From Octopus vulgaris (taxonomy: Eukaryota): DNA of 64,000 nucleotides. Where the stretch lies: positions 33,666,001-33,730,000 of the forward strand of contig OX597818.1 in the NCBI GenBank assembly GCA_951406725.2. The letters run 5' to 3'. The position numbers were made by a program, and so were the translations under genes. Under the pieces are notes generated by a model. It worked only from the letters and a program-made list of their open reading frames with translations. It was not told the DNA's origin and did not search any database. The stretch's first letter is position 1; every line of letters starts with the position of its first letter. Shown here one piece after another: positions 21,367 through 49,637 of this stretch.

Positions 21367-22155
21367 TATTATAAAAGGCAGATTTTATCTGCCTCCCTTT
21401 GGGAGTTATACAAATCTACAATATAGGATTTCTTCAATTACAATTTACCTAGCAATTTTAAGAGTACAATGCATCGCGTCATGCCAGCTCCAGTTTTTAA
21501 AATTTAAACTCCAATTAAGCAAAATTTACAGAAAACTCACATTCTGGTGTGTGTGTCAAATGCTTTTCTTAGTCTGGTTTACAGCACACGCAAACGCACA
21601 CACACACTGTGTAACGAATAAAATGAAACTAGATGTAATATTTGTTGCTGTCCATGAACGCTGATAGATACACGAGTAAAATGTATGGGAAGCTAACAAA
21701 TAAGAGTGAGTGAAAATGTTCTTGGAAGAGAGTAAATTTGAAGCTTGAGAACAATCAGATACATTTGCAACACATCTGTTGAAAATATTATTATTCACAC
21801 ACATACATATACATATATACATACAGACAGACAGACAGATAGACACACACACACACACACACATGATCCAGCATGGCCACAACCTCAAGGCTGAAACATA
21901 TAAAAGAATAACAGAATATAAATGTGTGCATGTGTGTGAGAGAGAGAGTGTGTGTGTATATGTATGTATGTATGTATGTATATATATATAATAATGCGGT
22001 TTTTTCAACAGCTTGAACTAAAAGTCAGAGGGGAATGGGATAAACTACTTATATTAACTTGCTATAAAAGCAGGTAGTAATTTTATCTTGTCCTTATTCA
22101 TAGTGCAAGTTTTGAAGAGTGCATTTCGATTTTAACAGCTATTTTTTTCAAAGCT

Positions 22156-22580
22156 ATGTTGGAAGTAACAAAGGAGCATATTTGGCATATTTTGCTTTAT
22201 GAGTTCAATAAAGACAACAACGCAACGGAAAGTACAAGAAATATTAATGCAGTATATGGGGATTGGACAATAAGCGTAAGGCAGTGTCAATGGTGGTTCC
22301 AGAAATTCCGAGCCATAAACTACAGCCTAGAAGACGAGCCTCATCCTGAAAGATCTGTAGAACTCGACAAGGACATCCTGAAAACCCTGGTGGAACAAAA
22401 TCTCATCGTAACTGTTGAGGAACTAGCAGAGAAGCTTGGATTTGGTCATTCAACCATTCATTGAGACCTGTGTGCTATCGGAAAAGTCAGCAAATTGGGT
22501 CAATGGGTTCCTCACGAACTTTCCGAGTCTAATTGCATGCAGAGAGTGAATGTATGCTTTTCTTTGCTGTCACATCTCAC
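22156..22580 (+). pseudogene. mariner (Mos1/Hsmar-like) transposase N-terminal fragment
   Basis: HILLYEFNK...INAVYG..TIS.RQCQWWFQKFR...SLEDEP...TVEELAEKLG..HSTIH*..GKVSKLGQWVPHEL, i.e. an HTH plus the WVPHEL linker. Confidence 0.92.
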
Positions 22581-23726: not shown

Positions 23727-24041
23727 TACACACACACATACATACACACACACATACATACATACATACATATACATACATACATACATACATACATACA
23801 TACATACATACACACACACACATACACACACACACATACACACAGTATTGAAGCTTGAGAACAATCAGATACATTTGCAACACATCTGTTGAAAATATTA
23901 TTGTTCACACACATACATATACATATATACATACAGACAGACAGACAGATAGACACACACACACACACACACACATGATCCAGCATGGCCACAACCTCAA
24001 GGCTGAAACATATAAAAGAATAACAGAATATAAATGTGTGC

Positions 24042-24392
24042 AAAGTACAAGAAATATTAATGCAGTATATGGGGATTGGACAATAAGCGTAAGGCAGTGT
24101 CAATGGTGGTTCCAGAAATCCCGAGCCATAAACTACAGCCTAGAAGACGAGCCTCATCCTGAAAGATCTGTAGAACTCGACAAGGACATCCTGAAAACCC
24201 TGGTGGAACAAAATATCATCGTAACTGTTGAGGAACTAGCAGAGAAGCTTGGATTTGGTCATTCAACCATTCATTGACACCTGTGTGCTATCGGAAAAGT
24301 CAGCAAATTGGGTCAATGGGTTCCTCACGAACTTTCCGAGTCTAATTGCATGCAGAGAGTGAATGTATGCTTTTCTTTGCTGTCATATCTCA
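24042..24392 (+). pseudogene. Second copy of the mariner transposase fragment (5'-deleted)
   Basis: Near-identical to 22230-22580, including WVPHEL. Confidence 0.9.
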
Positions 24393-35487: not shown

Positions 35488-35924
35488 AGAATATAGATTA
35501 GTTTACGCAAATATATCCACCAAGCAGTTCTTTAGAAATATATCTGCATTCCTGGTTTTCTGTACCAGTTTTATAGTGAAAATAGAATTCTTTTAAAATG
35601 CGTAGAATATCTATTTTGTGCATTAATTTTATTAATTTCCGGCTCATTAGCAAAATGCTTAAAGTGTTTTACACAGATGCGCATCCATGTCTCTATTTCT
35701 AATTACGAATTACAAATTTTTTTTAATAATCTCATTAACCCATTTGATATATCTAATAGCTACTTCATCTTATAAAATCCTTCAAATTCATTTCCACCTG
35801 CGCTCAGTCTAAGACGAAGCTCCAATAAACTACATACACACAAAGACTAACATAAAGTAGTTAATAAGTTAGTTGAAGGGTTGGTTATTTGGTTCGTTAG
35901 TCAGCTAGCTAGCTAGCTAATTAG

Positions 35925-35926
35925 CC

Positions 35927-35999
<73 letters not shown>

Positions 36000-36030
36000 G
36001 TTAGTTAGTTAACTAGTTAACTGGTTAGTT
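35925..36030. repeat. (TTAG)n microsatellite
   Basis: Direct inspection. Confidence 0.9.
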
Positions 36031-36394
36031 ACTCATTTACGTACGTAATTACTTGATTTTTAGCTTATTAATTTAGACGGGAAATCAGTAAAGATGGCAA
36101 TTTCTAGGCTCTTCAAACATGGTGGAAGTGTAGGGAAGTATATATTTTCAAAAGAGGAATGCGACCAAAATTCTAGTACGTACGTGTAAGTAAGTCCTCG
36201 CGTTTGTGTTCATTTTCGCAGGTTAACAACTGGTGTATTTTCGACCCCGTGACGTAGCGGTGCAGGGAAACAATCCAATAGAACAAAACTTTCTTTCAAA
36301 AATAAATGTTGACTACACACTTCAAGGCTGTACCCTAGCTTACCCGCTAGTGCAAGACTACAAGAAGGACAATATAAATACATGTATGTGTGTA

Positions 36395-36489
<95 letters not shown>

Positions 36490-36652
36490 GTTATCGCCAT
36501 ACTAATATGGCATTCTTATAAAAATAAGAAAAAAGCTGTCCGCTTATTAGCTCCATGAGGCCATCGCCTTAAGTTAGCTATTTGATACACAAACTGTATC
36601 CATATAACCTTCGAACAAGGGAGGTCAGTCGCTCCACACTACTTGACCGGCA

Positions 36653-36694
36653 GCTACAGATGCGTTTCGGAGTATTGCCCCTTTTCAATGCAGC
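36653..36694 (-). ncRNA. Type I hammerhead ribozyme, unit 1 (stem III palindrome mutated, AUC triplet)
   Basis: Minus strand reads GCUGCA UUGAAAA GGGG-CAAUA-CUCC GAAA CGCAUC UGUAGC. Confidence 0.7.
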
Positions 36695-37014
36695 GTAGCC
36701 AGCCAGTAGGTGTCGCTTCCGACAATCTCTGTTCGATGCTTTTATTTACCTAGTTTCGGTGGAATACATCCACTTGTTTTCAATAATAGAAATATTAAAA
36801 TAACTAAGTCTCTCTAAAAGAGAACAACGGCAGCGTTCCCGGAAAATAATAGTTATCGCCATACTAATATGGCATTCTTATAAAAATAAGAAAAAAGCTG
36901 TCCGCTTATTAGCTCCATGAGGCCATCGCCTTAAGTTAGCTATTTGATACACAAACTGTATCCATATAACCTTCGAACAAGGGAGGTCAGTCGCTCCACA
37001 CTACTTGACCGGCA

Positions 37015-37056
37015 GCTACAGACGCGTTTCGGAGTATTGCCCCTTTTCAATGCAGC
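37015..37056 (-). ncRNA. Minimal type I hammerhead ribozyme, U3-A8 core variant, unit 2
   Basis: Minus strand reads GCUGCA|UUGAAAA|GGGG CAAUA CUCC|GAAA CGCG UC^UGUAGC. Stem I is GCUGCA/UGUAGC, extended by UGGCUGGC/GCCGGUCA and CUAC/GUAG. Stem III is the palindrome ACGCGU and the cleavage triplet is GUC. Confidence 0.85.
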
Positions 37057-37376
37057 GTAGCCAGCCAGTAGGTGTCGCTTCCGACAATCTCTGTTCGATG
37101 GTTTTATTTACCTAGTTTCGGTGCAATACATCCACTTGTTTTCAATAATAGAAATATTAAAATAACTAAGTCTCTCTAAAAGAGAACAGCGGCAGCGTTC
37201 CCGGAAAATAATAGTTATCGCCATACTAATATGGCATTCTTATAAAAATAAGAAAAAAGCTGTCCGCTTATTAGCTCCATGAGGCCATCGCCTTAAGTTA
37301 GCTATTTGATACACAAACTGTATCCATATAACCTTCGAACAAGGGAGGTCAGTCGCTCCACACTACTTGAGCGGCA

Positions 37377-37418
37377 GCTACAGACGCGTTTCGGAGTATT
37401 GCCCCTTTTCAATGCAGC
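37377..37418 (-). ncRNA. Minimal type I hammerhead ribozyme, U3-A8 core variant, unit 3
   Basis: Core identical to 37015-37056. Confidence 0.85.
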
Positions 37419-38097
37419 GTAGCCAGCCAGTAGGTGTCGCTTCCGACAATCTCTGTTCGATGGTTTTATTTACCTAGTTTCGGTGGAATACATCCACTTG
37501 TTTTCAATAATAGAAATATTAAAATAACTAAGTCTCTCTAAAAGGGGCAATACTCCGAAACGCGTCTGTAGCTGCCGGTCAAGTAGTGTGGAGCGACTGA
37601 CCTCCCTTGTTCGAAGGTTATATGGATACAGTTTGTGTATCAAATAGCTAACTTAAGGCGATGGCCTCATGGAGCTAATAAGCGGACAGCTTTTTTCTTA
37701 TTTTTATAAGAATGCCATATTAGTATGGCGATAACTATTATTTTCCGGGAACGCTGCCGCTCTTCTCTTTTAGAGAGACTTAGTTATTTTAATATTTCTA
37801 TTATATATATATATATACATCTTATATATTTGTGGTTTTCGTCACTGTTTACAATTATCTTCAAAAAGATTTTTTTAATGTATCGTATAGATGTATTATT
37901 TGACGCTGAATCCGAATTTGATATTCATTTACTCCAGAAAAGTTTTACAGAAGTGTAACAGGTGTTCAAATTTTGAAAATTTTCAGTATTTTCAGCCCAT
38001 CAGAAAACAACAGGTTCGCTGCCTCTTCCATCATTGGAGCAGGGGCATCGGCATGTCAAAACATTAAACTAGCTACAGTAAACAGTGAATAAAAAGA

Positions 38098-38280
38098 AAA
38101 CATTCGCGAGCAAATTAAATATTTAAAAGCCACGAACAAACCAACACGAGTTGTAAGAAATAACAGTCAAAATATAAAAATATATTCATGCAAATTTAAC
38201 ATTAAAACATTCGCGAGCGAATTAAGCATTTAAAAGCTACGAACAAACCAACAGAAATTGCTAAAAATAACAATCAAAGC
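38098..38280. repeat. Diverged ~108-bp tandem duplication
   Basis: aaacattcgcgagc(a/g)aattaa...tttaaaagc.acgaacaaaccaaca occurs at ~38098 and ~38206. Confidence 0.8.
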
Positions 38281-39014
38281 ATTATTTAAAACTGGTATTT
38301 ATTTGTTTAAAAAAGTTTTAAATACACTCTAGGATTTTATAAAATAAATTATCATTCTCGTACATCTTTTTCCACCTAAATTCACGGAGATATGAGACAA
38401 CCATGGAACGGTGTGTCCCACACCAGCATTTGTTGCCTACATTCCTTGTGCGCATGCGCTGCATCTATGGTTACTATGGAAACAGAGTTCTTCGCAATCA
38501 GCTATGGAACATGTGATGCTGCTTTGCTTTGTATACTATGGAGACAGAGTTCTTCACCAGAGTGATGTGTAAAATATTCGATTCGGATTGGCTAAAATAC
38601 CCCAATTTTCCAAATTATAGGAAAAATAATTTCATTTTCATAATTAGTATACAAAACTTAATCCATATGTCAAATTTGAAAGCAATTTGAATAAAATTGT
38701 AAAGTGGCAGAGGAATATTACTACTAGTTTAACCCAAGGCGGCTCATCATCTACACGCACCTGCACAGTGAGGTGACAGTTAAGACCCGCATTCATCAGC
38801 GATATATTGTAAACAAATTGATTTGCATATATATATATATATATATGTCCCTTGTATTTGAATACTATGCAACTTTTAAATTTTTTTCTTTTAATTTCTC
38901 CCAAATTTAATTATTTTCCAGACATACAGTCGAAAAAATCTCAGTGACTGAAACCGGTACTGAAATGTTTTATATAATATTATTTTAGCATTTCCTACCT
39001 TGACTTTTTTTGCC

Positions 39015-44186: not shown

Positions 44187-44227
<41 letters not shown>

Positions 44228-44245
44228 ATTTTATTATATAGAAGG

Positions 44246-44296
44246 AGCTTCTACAGGACTAGTACTGTTTCATTCAAGAGAAATCTTCAGGAAGCT
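44246..44296 (-). ncRNA. Type I hammerhead ribozyme (left palindrome end)
   Basis: Minus strand reads AGCUUC|CUGAAGA|uUUC-ucuu-GAAu|GAA ACAG-uacuaguc-CUGU A^GAAGCU. The core is canonical, stem I is 6 bp, stem III is 4 bp and the triplet is GUA. The first stem II pair is a U-U mismatch. Confidence 0.8.
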
Positions 44297-44703
44297 ATTT
44301 AACAAGAATCGTATTAGCATTTATACATTTAGAGGAGTGGTGGTGGGGGACTTTTTGGGGGTAGGCATAGCGCAAAATATCATACTTGGGGGAGTGGTCA
44401 AGGTAATAAAAAAATAAAAAAAAATAAAAAATAAAAAAATAAAAAAATAAAATAATAAAAAGATAAAATAAAAGAATAAAAATAAAAAATATAAAAAATA
44501 TAAAAAATAAAAAATATAAAAAATATAAAAAATATATATAAATATATAAAAAAATATATATATAAAAATATATATATAAAATATATATATAAAAAAAGGG
44601 GGGATAGAGTTATAGGTAAATAAGGAGATTCTCACTTATACCTATACACACATGTATACGTATCTACACACACATACGCACATACACATATATCTACACA
44701 CAC

Positions 44704-44751
<48 letters not shown>

Positions 44752-45210
44752 CCTACACATACACACATACATACATACAAATATACGTATACATACATAT
44801 ATATACAATCCAATACAGGCCCATTCCCTAATTTTAATTTTATTATCTTCATTTATTACTTTTGTTATCTTTGATCGCTAGGGCTAAGAATCCTGGCAAT
44901 AGCTGCTTGTCCGTTTGTCTGTCTACTAGAAGGCAAGTACTCATTCCCGCACGCACACTCATTAGCACGTACATTCACCCATTCGTACACTCATACACAT
45001 ACACGTACGCACGCGTTATATTCATACATACAAACATCTACATACGTTCACGTATATACACATACGTACTCGTACCTACAGATTCGTGTCTACACTTTAG
45101 GAGGCTAGTCTATACATATACACCAATAAATATACATATATATATATATATATATACCCGCATATACATACACACACACACATATATACTCCTACATACA
45201 GATACATACC

Positions 45211-45252
<42 letters not shown>

Positions 45253-45462
45253 TACATATATATATATACATATATACACATACCTACACATACACACATA
45301 CACATACACACACATACATACACATATATATACATACACAAACATATATACACACACATATATATACATACACACATACACACATACATACGTATACATA
45401 CATACATACATCTATACATCCATACTTACATGCATTTATACGCATACACACACCCATCTATA

Positions 45463-45499
<37 letters not shown>

Positions 45500-45790
45500 T
45501 CACACATACATATACAAATCTACGCACACACATACATACATACACGTATACTCATACACGCACATACACATATACATGCGTACCCATACACGTGCACACA
45601 CGCACGCGCATCCATATAAATACACACACACACATATATATATACACACATATATATACACGTGTGCAAGCATACATACATACTCATACGCGCACACATA
45701 CTTACAAATACATATATGCACACACTTACACACATATATATACATACACATATACATGCATACATACATATATGCATACATACACACACG

Positions 45791-45844
<54 letters not shown>

Positions 45845-46466
45845 TACATAGACATACATACACATACATACACATACACATACGTACACACACATATACA
45901 CATATATATATATACATATATATATATATACACATATACACGCATACATATATACACATATACATACATATACATACACACACACATACATATATACATA
46001 TACACTGATACACATACCCATACATACACATGCATATACTTATATTACTACATACTCACATATATAGACATATATACATATACACACATACACATATACA
46101 TGTACATACACATACGCATGCATATATATATATATATACACACACATATATACACATACATATATATATATATATATATAACATACGTACACACACACAC
46201 ACACATACATATACACATATACATGTATACATACGCAAAAATGATACGCATATATACACATACACACACACAGACAGATGCATATACATACATATATATA
46301 TATATATAACTACATATCTATATAAATACAAACATAATACACATATACACACACATATATATACATTCATGCATATACATATACAAGTATACATACACAA
46401 ACATACACACACACGCGCACACATACATATACACACACACATATACAAATACATACATACACACAT

Positions 46467-46505
<39 letters not shown>

Positions 46506-46901
46506 CATACATGTACACATATACATATGTATATATATATCAACAAGGGAGGGTAAAGTTAATTAGTTATTAATCAATTTCATCAAGTGTTCAGTATGTA
46601 AAGGGACCATTATTATTTTGAGTAAACAATGTTAGAGGAAAAAAATTCTCTAAGTAGTGGAAGAGGCTAAAAAACTTTATTGGCTGCTATTTCTAGAAAG
46701 TTTAGTATGTGGCAAAGTAATTTATTTTATTTTCCTAAGCCCTAATTATATAATATTTTATACATACATACACATACATAAGCACATACATTTACACATA
46801 CATATGCATATACATATATACACATATACATACAAACACATATACACATATACACACACACACACATACAAGCACATACATATATATATACATATATATA
46901 C

Positions 46902-46971
<70 letters not shown>

Positions 46972-47336
46972 GCTTGTATGTGTGTGTGTATATGTGTATA
47001 TGTGTTTGTATGTATATGTGTATATATGTATATGCATATGTATGTGTAAATGTATGTGCTTATGTATGTGTATGTATGTATAAAATATTATATAATTAGG
47101 GCTTAGGAAAATAAAATAAATTACTTTGCCACATACTAAACTTTCTAGAAATAGCAGCCAATAAAGTTTTTTAGCCTCTTCCACTACTTAGAGAATTTTT
47201 TTCCCTCTAACATTGTTTACTCAAAATAATAATGGTCCCTTTACATACTGAACACTTGATGAAATTGATTAATAACTAATTAACTTTACCCTCCCTTGTT
47301 GATATATATATACATATGTATGTGTGTACATGTATG

Positions 47337-47369
<33 letters not shown>

Positions 47370-47890
47370 ATGTGTGTATGTATGTATTTGTATATGTGTG
47401 TGTGTATATGTATGTGTGCGTGTGTGTGTATGTTTGTGTATGTATACTTGTATATGTATATGCATGAATGTATATATATGTGTGTGTATATGTGTATTAT
47501 GTTTGTATTTATATAGATATGTAGTTTATATATATATATATATGTATGTATATGCATCTGTCTGTGTGTGTGTATGTGTATATATGCGTATCATTTTTGC
47601 GTATGTATACATGTATATGTGTATATGTATGTGTGTGTGTGTGTGTACGTATGTATATATATATATATATATATGTGTGTATATATGTGTGTGTATATAT
47701 ATATATATGCATGCGTATGTGTATGTACATGTATATATGTATGTGTGTATATGTATATATGTCTATATATGTGAGTATGTAGTAATATAAGTATATGCAT
47801 GTGTATGTATGGGTATGTGTATCAGTGTATATGTATATATGTATGTGTGTGTGTATGTATATGTATGTATATGTGTATATATGTATGCGT

Positions 47891-47932
<42 letters not shown>

Positions 47933-48019
47933 ATATGTGTGTGTGTGTGTATGTGTATGTATGTGTATGTATGTCTATGTATGTATATGTGTGTGTATAT
48001 ATATATATGTGTGTGTGTG

Positions 48020-48059
<40 letters not shown>

Positions 48060-48571
48060 CATATATGTATGTATGCATGTATATGTGTATGTATATATAT
48101 GTGTGTAAGTGTGTGCATATATGTATTTGTAAGTATGTGTGCGCGTATGAGTATGTATGTATGCTTGCACACGTGTATATATATGTGTGTATATATATGT
48201 GTGTGTGTGTATTTATATGGATGCGCGTGCGTGTGTGCACGTGTATGGGTACGCATGTATATGTGTATGTGCGTGTATGAGTATACGTGTATGTATGTAT
48301 GTGTGTGCGTAGATTTGTATATGTATGTGTGAGTGTGTATATATATATATATATATATATACATATATATAGATGGGTGTGTGTATGCGTATAAATGCAT
48401 GTAAGTATGGATGTATAGATGTATGTATGTATACGTATGTATGTGTGTATGTGTGTATGTATATATATGTGTGTGTATATATGTTTGTGTATGTATATAT
48501 ATGTGTATGTATGTGTGTGTATGTGTATGTGTGTATGTGTAGGTATGTGTATATATGTATATATATATGTA

Positions 48572-48613
<42 letters not shown>

Positions 48614-49072
48614 TATGTATCTGTATGTAGGAGTATATATATGTGTGTGTGTGTATGTATATGCGGGTATATATATATATATATATATGTATATTTATTG
48701 GTGTATATGTATAGACTAGCCTCCTAAAGTGTAGACACGAATCTGTAGGTACGAGTACGTATGTGTATATACGTGAACGTATGTAGATGTTTGTATGTAT
48801 GAATATAACGCGTGCGTACGTGTATGTGTATGAGTGTACGAATGGGTGAATGTACGTGCTAATGAGTGTGCGTGCGGGAATGAGTACTTGCCTTCTAGTA
48901 GACAGACAAACGGACAAGCAGCTATTGCCAGGATTCTTAGCCCTAGCGATCAAAGATAACAAAAGTAATAAATGAAGATAATAAAATTAAAATTAGGGAA
49001 TGGGCCTGTATTGGATTGTATATATATGTATGTATACGTATATTTGTATGTATGTATGTGTGTATGTGTAGG

Positions 49073-49127
<55 letters not shown>

Positions 49128-49520
49128 AGATATATGTGTATGTGCGTATGTGTGTGTAGATACGTATACATGTGTGTATAGGTATAAGTGAGAATCTCCT
49201 TATTTACCTATAACTCTATCCCCCCTTTTTTTATATATATATTTTATATATATATTTTTATATATATATTTTTATATATATATATTTTTTTTTATATTTT
49301 TTATATTTTTTATTTTTTATATTTTTTATATTTTTTATTTTTATTCTTTATTTTATCTTTTTATTATTTTATTTTTTTATTTTTTTATTTTTTATTTTTT
49401 TATTTTTTTATTACCTTGACCACTCCCCCAAGTATGATATTTTGCGCTATGCCTACCCCCAAAAAGTCCCCCACCACCACTCCTCTAAATGTATAAATGC
49501 TAATACGATTCTTGTTAAAT

Positions 49521-49571
49521 AGCTTCCTGAAGATTTCTCTTGAATGAAAAAGTACTAGTCCTGTAGAAGCT
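49521..49571 (+). ncRNA. Type I hammerhead ribozyme (right palindrome end; C>A in stem III)
   Basis: agcttc CTGAAGA tttctcttgaat GAAA aagtactagtcctgta gaagct, followed by aataaa. Confidence 0.7.
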
Positions 49572-49637
49572 CCTTCTATATAATAAATTAATTTTACTCT
49601 GCTATGTATTGAGTACCTTACTTACTGTGGTTAACCC

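Follow-up and report, generated by a model that had tools for sequence, protein, structure and literature searches.

A young ribozyme-bearing tandem repeat of Octopus vulgaris with two-armed insertions in (TA)n and a Tx1-like LINE at a fixed site in its unit

Results

Structure of the repeat in the window

The window analysed is a stretch of 64,000 nucleotides from contig OX597818.1 of Octopus vulgaris. Tandem Repeats Finder reported a 362-bp unit repeated 2.9 times at 36484-37544, with copies 99% alike. The GC content of the unit is 41%. No ORF of at least 120 aa lies over the element, and the ARAGORN search found no tRNA at it. The three-unit array is the long arm of an insertion, and an inverted arm of 265 bp (99% complementary) adjoins it on the right. 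The two arms overlap by 5 nt, and (TA)n stands outside both outer ends. On the right, the insertion terminates at unit position 300 (site B) and so has 63 nt that the left end lacks. The initial annotation had placed three nearly identical ORF-less 362-bp units inside a (TA)n tract. The units were found as stated, but the array does not meet (TA)n directly at its right end because the inverted arm lies between. The ribozyme-bearing RNA of the long arm is the minus strand. The features of the locus are as follows.

36403..36486, no strand: left (TA)n tract, part of the target microsatellite (sequence, tandem repeat search)
36484..37544, minus strand: long arm, 2.93 head-to-tail units of 362 bp, outer end at unit position 1 (site A)
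36639..36709, minus strand: unit-1 hammerhead with extended stem I, damaged (AUC triplet, broken stem III palindrome), predicted cut 36659/36658
37001..37071, minus strand: unit-2 type I hammerhead with U3-A8 core, 4-bp stem II, palindromic stem III and bulged extended stem I, predicted cut 37021/37020
37363..37433, minus strand: unit-3 hammerhead with intact core and a single private change (distal stem I), predicted cut 37383/37382
37021..37382, minus strand: predicted 362-nt monomer, cut to cut (folding)
37066..37082, minus strand: unoccupied 17-bp target site of the Tx1-like LINE, on the 5' strand of extended stem I
37540..37544, no strand: inversion junction, arms overlapping by 5 nt
37540..37804, plus strand: short inverted arm of 265 bp, covering unit positions 202 to 1 followed by 362 to 300
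37742..37804, plus strand: 63-nt "tail" between sites A and B, at one end only, outer end at position 300 (site B)
37805..37817, no strand: right (TA)n tract

Two further empty 17-bp LINE targets are located at 36704-36720 and 37428-37444. The hammerhead of the inverted arm is truncated at the inversion junction. The window repeat is a single young copy; the non-coding mobile RNA that it represents is very abundant and has a ribozyme motif. The locus itself may be a poor source, since read-through RNA could pair the inverted arm with unit 3.

Other elements were seen in the window. By eye, a second and larger tail-out inverted insertion lies between (TA)n tracts at 44225-49580. Its outer ends show a hammerhead-like motif with a C3-G8 core, and an inner inverted pair at about 46540-47300 resembles a PLE-like (Penelope-like element) end in another locus (L002). 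Two related reading-frame fragments (22081-22464 and 23852-24277) resemble remnants of Mariner-type transposases.

Hammerhead motif

Stem II, the GAAA and ACGCGU were found on the minus strand as initially described, the triplet being AUC in unit 1 and GUC in the other two units, and the same three predicted cut positions (36659/58, 37021/20 and 37383/82) were recovered. The palindromic stem III had been assigned to each unit; it holds for units 2 and 3 and is broken in unit 1. The unit-1 triplet change also breaks the stem III palindrome and weakens the stem III duplex (–2.3 vs –7.5 kcal/mol). Therefore, only units 2 and 3 look intact, and the intact motif is present in 2/3 of the window units. 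The term "minimal" does not suit this hammerhead. It is a type I motif of canonical size, with a stem I of 6 bp and a stem II of 4 bp. Its core reads UUGAAAA, with U3-A8 in place of C3-G8. The Rfam scan, which had been suggested as a check, gave no hammerhead for this core among the 14 matches in 35500-38700 with E up to 1. The miRNA-like matches of the same scan were dismissed as microsatellite noise.

The 151-nt region around the unit-2 motif folds with –61.3 kcal/mol (z = –5.8), and none of 200 shuffles was as stable. The cut-to-cut monomer gave z = –4.4 as a linear RNA and is 64% paired as a circle. The predicted MFE fold of the actual two-unit RNA is a double hammerhead, in which the two ACGCGU stretches are paired with each other. 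For comparison within the family, 23 hammerhead regions from young and older copies, chosen for diversity, were aligned. Pairing was retained in 95.1% of the cells, against 26-50% in slid controls, and U3-A8 was invariant (23/23). Five base pairs differ on both sides. Distal stem I contains two of them and proximal stem I one; the other two close stem II and occupy the middle of stem III. In the main variants stem III is ACGCGU, ACAUGU or ACUAGU, each of them palindromic. Relatedness inflates the cell counts, and the number of pairs changed on both sides is not above shuffles (203/500); therefore, it is the pattern that carries the weight. The motif is a predicted self-cleaving hammerhead with a fold conserved across the family.

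The U3-A8 swap is reported for Schistosoma PLE hammerheads in the accessible text of PMC4209133. As for activity, 8/9 Xenopus retrozyme dimers are described as cleaving poorly or not at all in vitro in the available part of bioRxiv 10.64898/2026.07.22.740005, and poor or no cleavage in vitro is also given for PLE hammerheads in the partial sources. Unit position 188, in stem II, is mixed within a locus far oftener than other variant sites. It is deleted in two units of one locus (L041), and the G run there is a possible slippage hot spot of reverse transcription.

Family size and relatives

The unit matches 168 places, mostly at 98-100% identity (40 scored of 1,186 candidates in the 2.8-Gb genome). 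Exact hammerhead cores were counted with three non-overlapping exact patterns and amount to at least 1,655 (147 + 1,198 + 310), and the reversed-pattern controls gave 0. The third pattern has a longer loop and counts the older subfamily only (310 cores). This subfamily is about 73-83% alike to the window unit, and a few intermediate copies are at 94-96%. Its unit length and ends appear similar to those of the window family (20 loci viewed, ends without tally). In relatives 77-83% alike, the unit length is about 362-365 bp. More than half of the sampled words of the repeat occur in 20 public runs from 13 studies with 7 organism labels; none of these runs is on record as RNA, which speaks neither for nor against expression.

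Two further hammerhead repeats were found. The second one has a CCGAUGA core, a unit of about 366 bp and 92 exact cores of the variant that is targeted by LINEs; it occurs also in L191, L193, L195 and L196. Its relative in L066 (6240-7027) has a two-armed layout and matches the window unit at 60% over 237 nt. The third one has a UUGACGA core and is a single degenerate copy (L197).

Insertion architecture across the genome

For the genome-wide view, 82 loci were fetched, 14 overlapping ones were dropped and one merged record was added, which left 69 loci with 72 clusters. The loci were selected by likeness to the window copy, and the sample leans towards young insertions. Two opposed arms are present in 55/72 clusters, and the remaining 17/72 are single-armed, split or interrupted. 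The ends of the 55 two-armed insertions are A+B in 48, B+B in one and A+A in none, while six have one eroded or interrupted end. With free choice of ends, 48/49 A+B would arise by chance with a probability of about 1e-13. The flanks are TA-rich on both sides in 46/48 A+B insertions. The tail is 63 nt, lies between unit positions 1 and 300 and appears at one end only. Arm length ranges from 25 to 3,571 nt (median about 450 nt, mean 537 nt), and arms reach about 10 units. At the arm junctions the overlap is mostly 1-7 nt, and the junction positions are spread over the whole unit. A two-armed tail-out architecture with fixed A/B ends is thereby shown for the sampled insertions.

According to the available part of bioRxiv 10.1101/2021.04.23.441226, PLE insertions are marked by a truncated copy in inverted orientation, by a tail at one of the two ends and by a preference for (TA)n, and the usual PLE tail is 30-40 nt. 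The 63-nt tail is longer and counts against the PLE reading. In the accessible text of PMC11167929, the Poseidon protein cuts and extends both strands in vitro, reverse transcription starts at two RNA sites and the spacing of these starts corresponds to the tail; hammerhead cleavage was dispensable for insertion in that assay. Classical twin priming on a single RNA is not favoured, because the junctions are spread over the unit without clustering at A or B. Some inversion junctions are recurrent, namely unit positions 128/137 in four loci (L002, L026, L034 and L036) and 132/189 in two (L009 and L013). The A and B arms are swapped between such loci, which suggests microhomology hot spots.

Variants of the two arms and the RNA

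The two arms of a locus agree at shared variants in 38/38 and 47/48 loci, where 0.71 and 0.86 would be expected if they were independent. Eight locus-private variants, in seven loci, occur in both arms ("private" being relative to 83 sampled loci). Among the private variants, 11 are fixed in every covering unit and 80 are singletons. In L075, every unit of both arms carries the new private variants (5/5). The arm variants would fit a single monomer that was copied repeatedly, as from a circle. Two observations count against such a template: most rare variants are singletons (80 vs 11), and position 188 is mixed in 7/30 loci, which speaks against a pure single monomer. In one of three runs that were guessed to be RNA, the unit appears as a 392-nt contig (362 + 30) whose two ends join up. 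The same contig would also result from a tandem transcript, the kind of the run is a guess, and strand, ends and level are invisible in it. An RNA circle of the retrozyme is therefore likely.

A-to-I editing was considered for the fixed variants and rejected as too weak (5 T>C vs 3 A>G of 19, three in one locus). In L058, two units share a cluster of three T>C changes, which read as A>G on the ribozyme strand and could be fixed A-to-I editing.

Penelope-like elements of the genome

Protein and GIY-YIG searches of the genome gave three young families of PLEs, whose open frames are 775, 717 and 781 aa long. No convincing unit-like end was found in seven copies of these three intact families and in 20 older fragments; the best match has E 0.007 over 22 nt. 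No PLE ORF is joined to the unit in the 69 + 20 loci, and no autonomous PLE ORF (RT + GIY-YIG) was found in the element. The 717-aa family (L186, L187, L072) has many open copies, a hammerhead-like motif with a CCGAAGA/CCGAUGA core and a (TA)n end. Its apparent tail is about 72 nt from the reading of two copies.

A Tx1-like LINE inserted in the unit

A LINE of 5.35 kb interrupts several arrays at one and the same position. Its ORF1 has a CCHC knuckle and its ORF2 has an APE endonuclease, an RT and a zf-RVT domain. From this domain layout we take it to be Tx1-like; its Atlas matches are unnamed RVT_1/zf-RVT clusters. The LINE site is 15 nt ahead of the hammerhead core, in the same sense as the ribozyme RNA, with a 17-bp duplication. 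Among the best 30 of 42 matches to the LINE 3' end, the retrozyme 17-mer follows in 19/19 at 98% identity or above and in one at 92%. Of these 20 ends, 17 run into the unit itself and three into the 17-mer plus another LINE copy. The ten other 3' ends, at 85-97%, are without the 17-mer. For the 5' end, 30 of 40 matches were examined, and the retrozyme 17-mer precedes 16/16 of those at 93% or above. Both copies of the 17-bp duplication match the allele of the host unit. These results show a fixed site of the LINE in the retrozyme unit. All of the 20 LINE-adjacent units carry the same allele at position 188, which is not special because 1,198/1,345 young cores carry it too.

A chain of at least five Tx1-like copies (L086, L087, L090, L091, L094 and L116-L119) was seen at G000:C2:73046564-73068724. 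It is joined three times by the bare 17-bp target and once by a whole retrozyme unit. In another locus (L085, G000:C14:42980061-42983365), a 5'-truncated LINE fragment of about 680 bp stands at the inversion junction of a retrozyme insertion. This is probably the PLE machinery copying a LINE-retrozyme read-through RNA.

Close relatives of the LINE are associated with U1. A complete U1 gene (Rfam) directly adjoins one 3' end, two 5' ends come after the first 17 bases of U1, and in L110 the U1-associated sister LINE is at the first base of the U1 gene. The loci of this sister LINE are L110, L129, L130 and L106; L130 has 17 U1 bases at the 5' end, a non-U1 3' flank (L106) and a U2 gene nearby. 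Distant relatives (69-75% at the 5' end) were found in the second hammerhead repeat, 15 nt ahead of the core, in 4/11 windows, and in the third, 11 nt ahead of the core, in 1/11. Of the other windows, 1/11 has a partial LINE match and 5/11 have none. By eye, the four target sequences (three hammerhead repeats and U1) look unlike each other. In the tree of the ORF2 3' end, the LINEs of the window family form a clade (97/93) among U1-type copies, and the LINEs of the second and third families stand apart (100/100, midpoint root only). These ORF2 trees comprise 22 rows, after removal of short matches and of eight nearly identical rows. A tree of the endonuclease divides along the same main line, and at the protein level the U1-type enzyme has about 95% identity.

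The literature search, which covered neither Repbase nor subscription papers nor supplements, any of which may describe these families, found no report of a Tx1-type LINE targeting a retrozyme, and for octopus Penelope hammerheads Craig 2021 (bioRxiv 10.1101/2021.04.23.441226) was the sole match. The LINE clade that sits in retrozymes just ahead of the ribozyme is the part for which we could not find a description.

Discussion

Proposed mechanism

The unit is quite probably a non-autonomous, PLE-dependent non-LTR retrozyme, whose arrays would yield cut monomers that are inserted by a PLE protein from two starts, and whose repeat is a target of the LINE. A retrozyme with Penelope-type mobilisation had been proposed for the locus, and this proposal is supported by the copy number, the covariation, the predicted double-hammerhead fold and the footprint of tail and inversion. 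That account did not mention the inverted arm, the U3-A8 core or the role of the unit as a LINE target. The arrays would be transcribed on the hammerhead strand. Neighbouring hammerheads would pair through the palindromic stem III, cut and release 362-nt monomers; the fold is computed and the cleavage is deduced from it. The monomers probably circularise. A PLE protein would then nick both strands of (TA)n, with one cDNA primed at A and the other at B, 63 nt apart. Both cDNAs would be copied from the same RNA or from one sequence lineage. Each would run a variable distance, up to about 10 turns, and the arms would be joined by short microhomology. The outcome is the tail-out two-armed insertion, whose architecture is seen directly and whose enzymology would follow the accessible text of PMC11167929. 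The Tx1-like LINE inserts into the repeat with a 17-bp duplication, 15 nt ahead of the core and in the sense of the ribozyme RNA, and presumably borrows the transcription and processing of the repeat. Besides the tail length and the variant patterns given above, three points count against the model: the three young PLE families and 20 older fragments gave no convincing unit-like end, PLE hammerheads and most Xenopus dimers are described as poor cleavers in vitro, and insertion in the Poseidon assay did not need hammerhead cleavage.

Alternative explanations

The same element could move through a linear multimeric template or through template jumping without a stable circular RNA, the hammerhead being kept as a structural signal or because it cleaves slowly or with the help of a protein. 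This is possible, if distinctly on the unlikely side. The mixed alleles at position 188 (7/30 loci) would be expected from it, the closed 392-nt contig is equally explained by a tandem transcript, and hammerhead mutants were still inserted in the Poseidon assay (available part of PMC11167929). However, arms reach 3,571 nt despite a median of about 450 nt, stem III has stayed palindromic although its centre changed in two different ways, and the private variants fixed across both arms of L075 (5/5) are most simply explained by a monomer bottleneck. That the units are truncated pseudo-LTR ends of an abundant autonomous PLE is very improbable. TA target, inversion and tail are as in PLE insertions, and U3-A8 cores are known from PLE pLTRs in the accessible text of PMC4209133, but long arms lead to more units (up to about 10) and never to a PLE ORF in 69 + 20 loci, and the unit length stays at about 362-365 bp in relatives 77-83% alike. 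An ordinary minisatellite that spread by unequal crossing-over and carries a chance hammerhead look-alike is hardly credible. Rfam recognises no hammerhead here, and a local amplification model is discussed in the available part of bioRxiv 10.64898/2026.07.22.740005. Copies on many chromosome-scale contigs, the variable inversion point and covariation in every stem are against it, and it is already contradicted because of the fixed-end architecture.

The link between LINE and retrozyme could also be hitchhiking, in which one or a few insertions without target specificity were spread as a composite by the PLE machinery. The truncated LINE of L085 ends at the inversion junction without a 5' duplication, as PLE copying predicts, and younger LINE copies are found in younger unit variants. 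As the explanation of the whole link it is improbable. For the 16 copies with a 5' end, a single arm longer than 5.6 kb would have a chance of about 3e-5 if stops are memoryless with a mean of 537 nt. The three LINE-17-bp-LINE tandem junctions, the host allele in both duplication copies, the spread of LINE hosts over several unit sub-lineages and the related LINEs at the matching site of two other hammerhead repeats also argue against it. Hitchhiking occurs at least once (L085), but it does not explain the 16 LINE copies because their 5' ends are intact.

Meaning of the findings

For the PLE-dependent retrozyme, the PLE mechanism is visible in the junctions of a young family, with A+B in 48/49 insertions that have both ends intact. 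Both arms would come from one template lineage, while the earlier case for retrozyme movement was built on co-occurrence and pLTR similarity. With its defined 362-nt substrate, the family could be used in the new in vitro PLE assay, and rolling-circle reverse transcription could be tested on its genomic copies. The LINE treats a ribozyme repeat as other retrotransposons treat snRNA or rRNA genes. Its nearly identical lineages with different targets (U1 vs retrozyme) are a natural experiment on a switch of specificity.

A wider reading is offered tentatively, and we regard it as rather doubtful. It sees three tiers of RNA parasites, in which a PLE would copy self-cleaving retrozyme circles by rolling circle from two fixed starts and a small clade of Tx1-like LINEs would have repeatedly colonised retrozymes and U1, steered by RNA. 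The LINE site would then depend on the position of the ribozyme and not on a sequence common to the targets, the co-transcribed host RNA would mainly steer the target, and the hammerheads would cut the LINE RNA from the array. If this is true, targets could switch with only about 5% change in the endonuclease.

Comparison with known systems

Animal non-LTR retrozymes are already described as a class, and their mobilisation by PLEs was proposed from co-occurrence and pLTR similarity, as given in the available parts of PMC7229834 and bioRxiv 10.64898/2026.07.22.740005. The present family is a new member of this described class with an unusually clear PLE footprint. It shares with the retrozymes of these partial sources the tandem non-coding units of 150-450 bp with GC below 50%, the type I hammerhead in each unit, the weak palindromic stem III and the proposed PLE mobilisation. 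A mussel family of 350-390 bp is reported in the same two sources. The octopus family differs from what their accessible text describes in having a U3-A8 core and in its insertions, which are two-armed and tail-out, lie in (TA)n and have fixed A/B ends. No matching pLTR was found for it. The word "inverted" is absent from the main text of the 2020 retrozyme paper (PMC7229834), and "tail" from that of the 2026 one (bioRxiv 10.64898/2026.07.22.740005).

With endonuclease-bearing PLEs the family shares the inverted 5'-truncated copy, the tail at one end and the AT-rich or (TA)n target (available part of bioRxiv 10.1101/2021.04.23.441226). Two internal RT start sites with cleavage and extension of both strands (accessible text of PMC11167929) and the U3-A8 core of Schistosoma PLEs (that of PMC4209133) are further likenesses, and non-autonomous multi-copy Chlamys elements exist according to the last source. 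Unlike PLEs as these partial sources present them, the unit is without an ORF, its tail is 63 nt instead of 30-40, and its arms are multi-unit concatemers. The motif of the window is canonical in size with a long stem I, unlike the minimal PLE hammerhead described there.

Target-specific LINEs of the Tx1 clade are described in the available part of PMC4494074, where Tx1L inserts in Tx1D, Keno in U2 and Tx1-Mar in Mariner, and where the targets in a tree legend include "satellites" of unspecified kind. The LINE reported here resembles this clade, as presented in that part of the source, in its domains (CCHC knuckle in ORF1; APE, RT and zf-RVT in ORF2), in its fixed target within a multicopy repeat, in the target duplication, in tandem re-insertion and in its U1-associated relatives. 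It differs from the Tx1 LINEs described there in its target, which is a hammerhead retrozyme entered at a set distance ahead of the ribozyme core. In the three hammerhead families the LINE sites lie at a fixed distance from the core, in target sequences that differ from each other.
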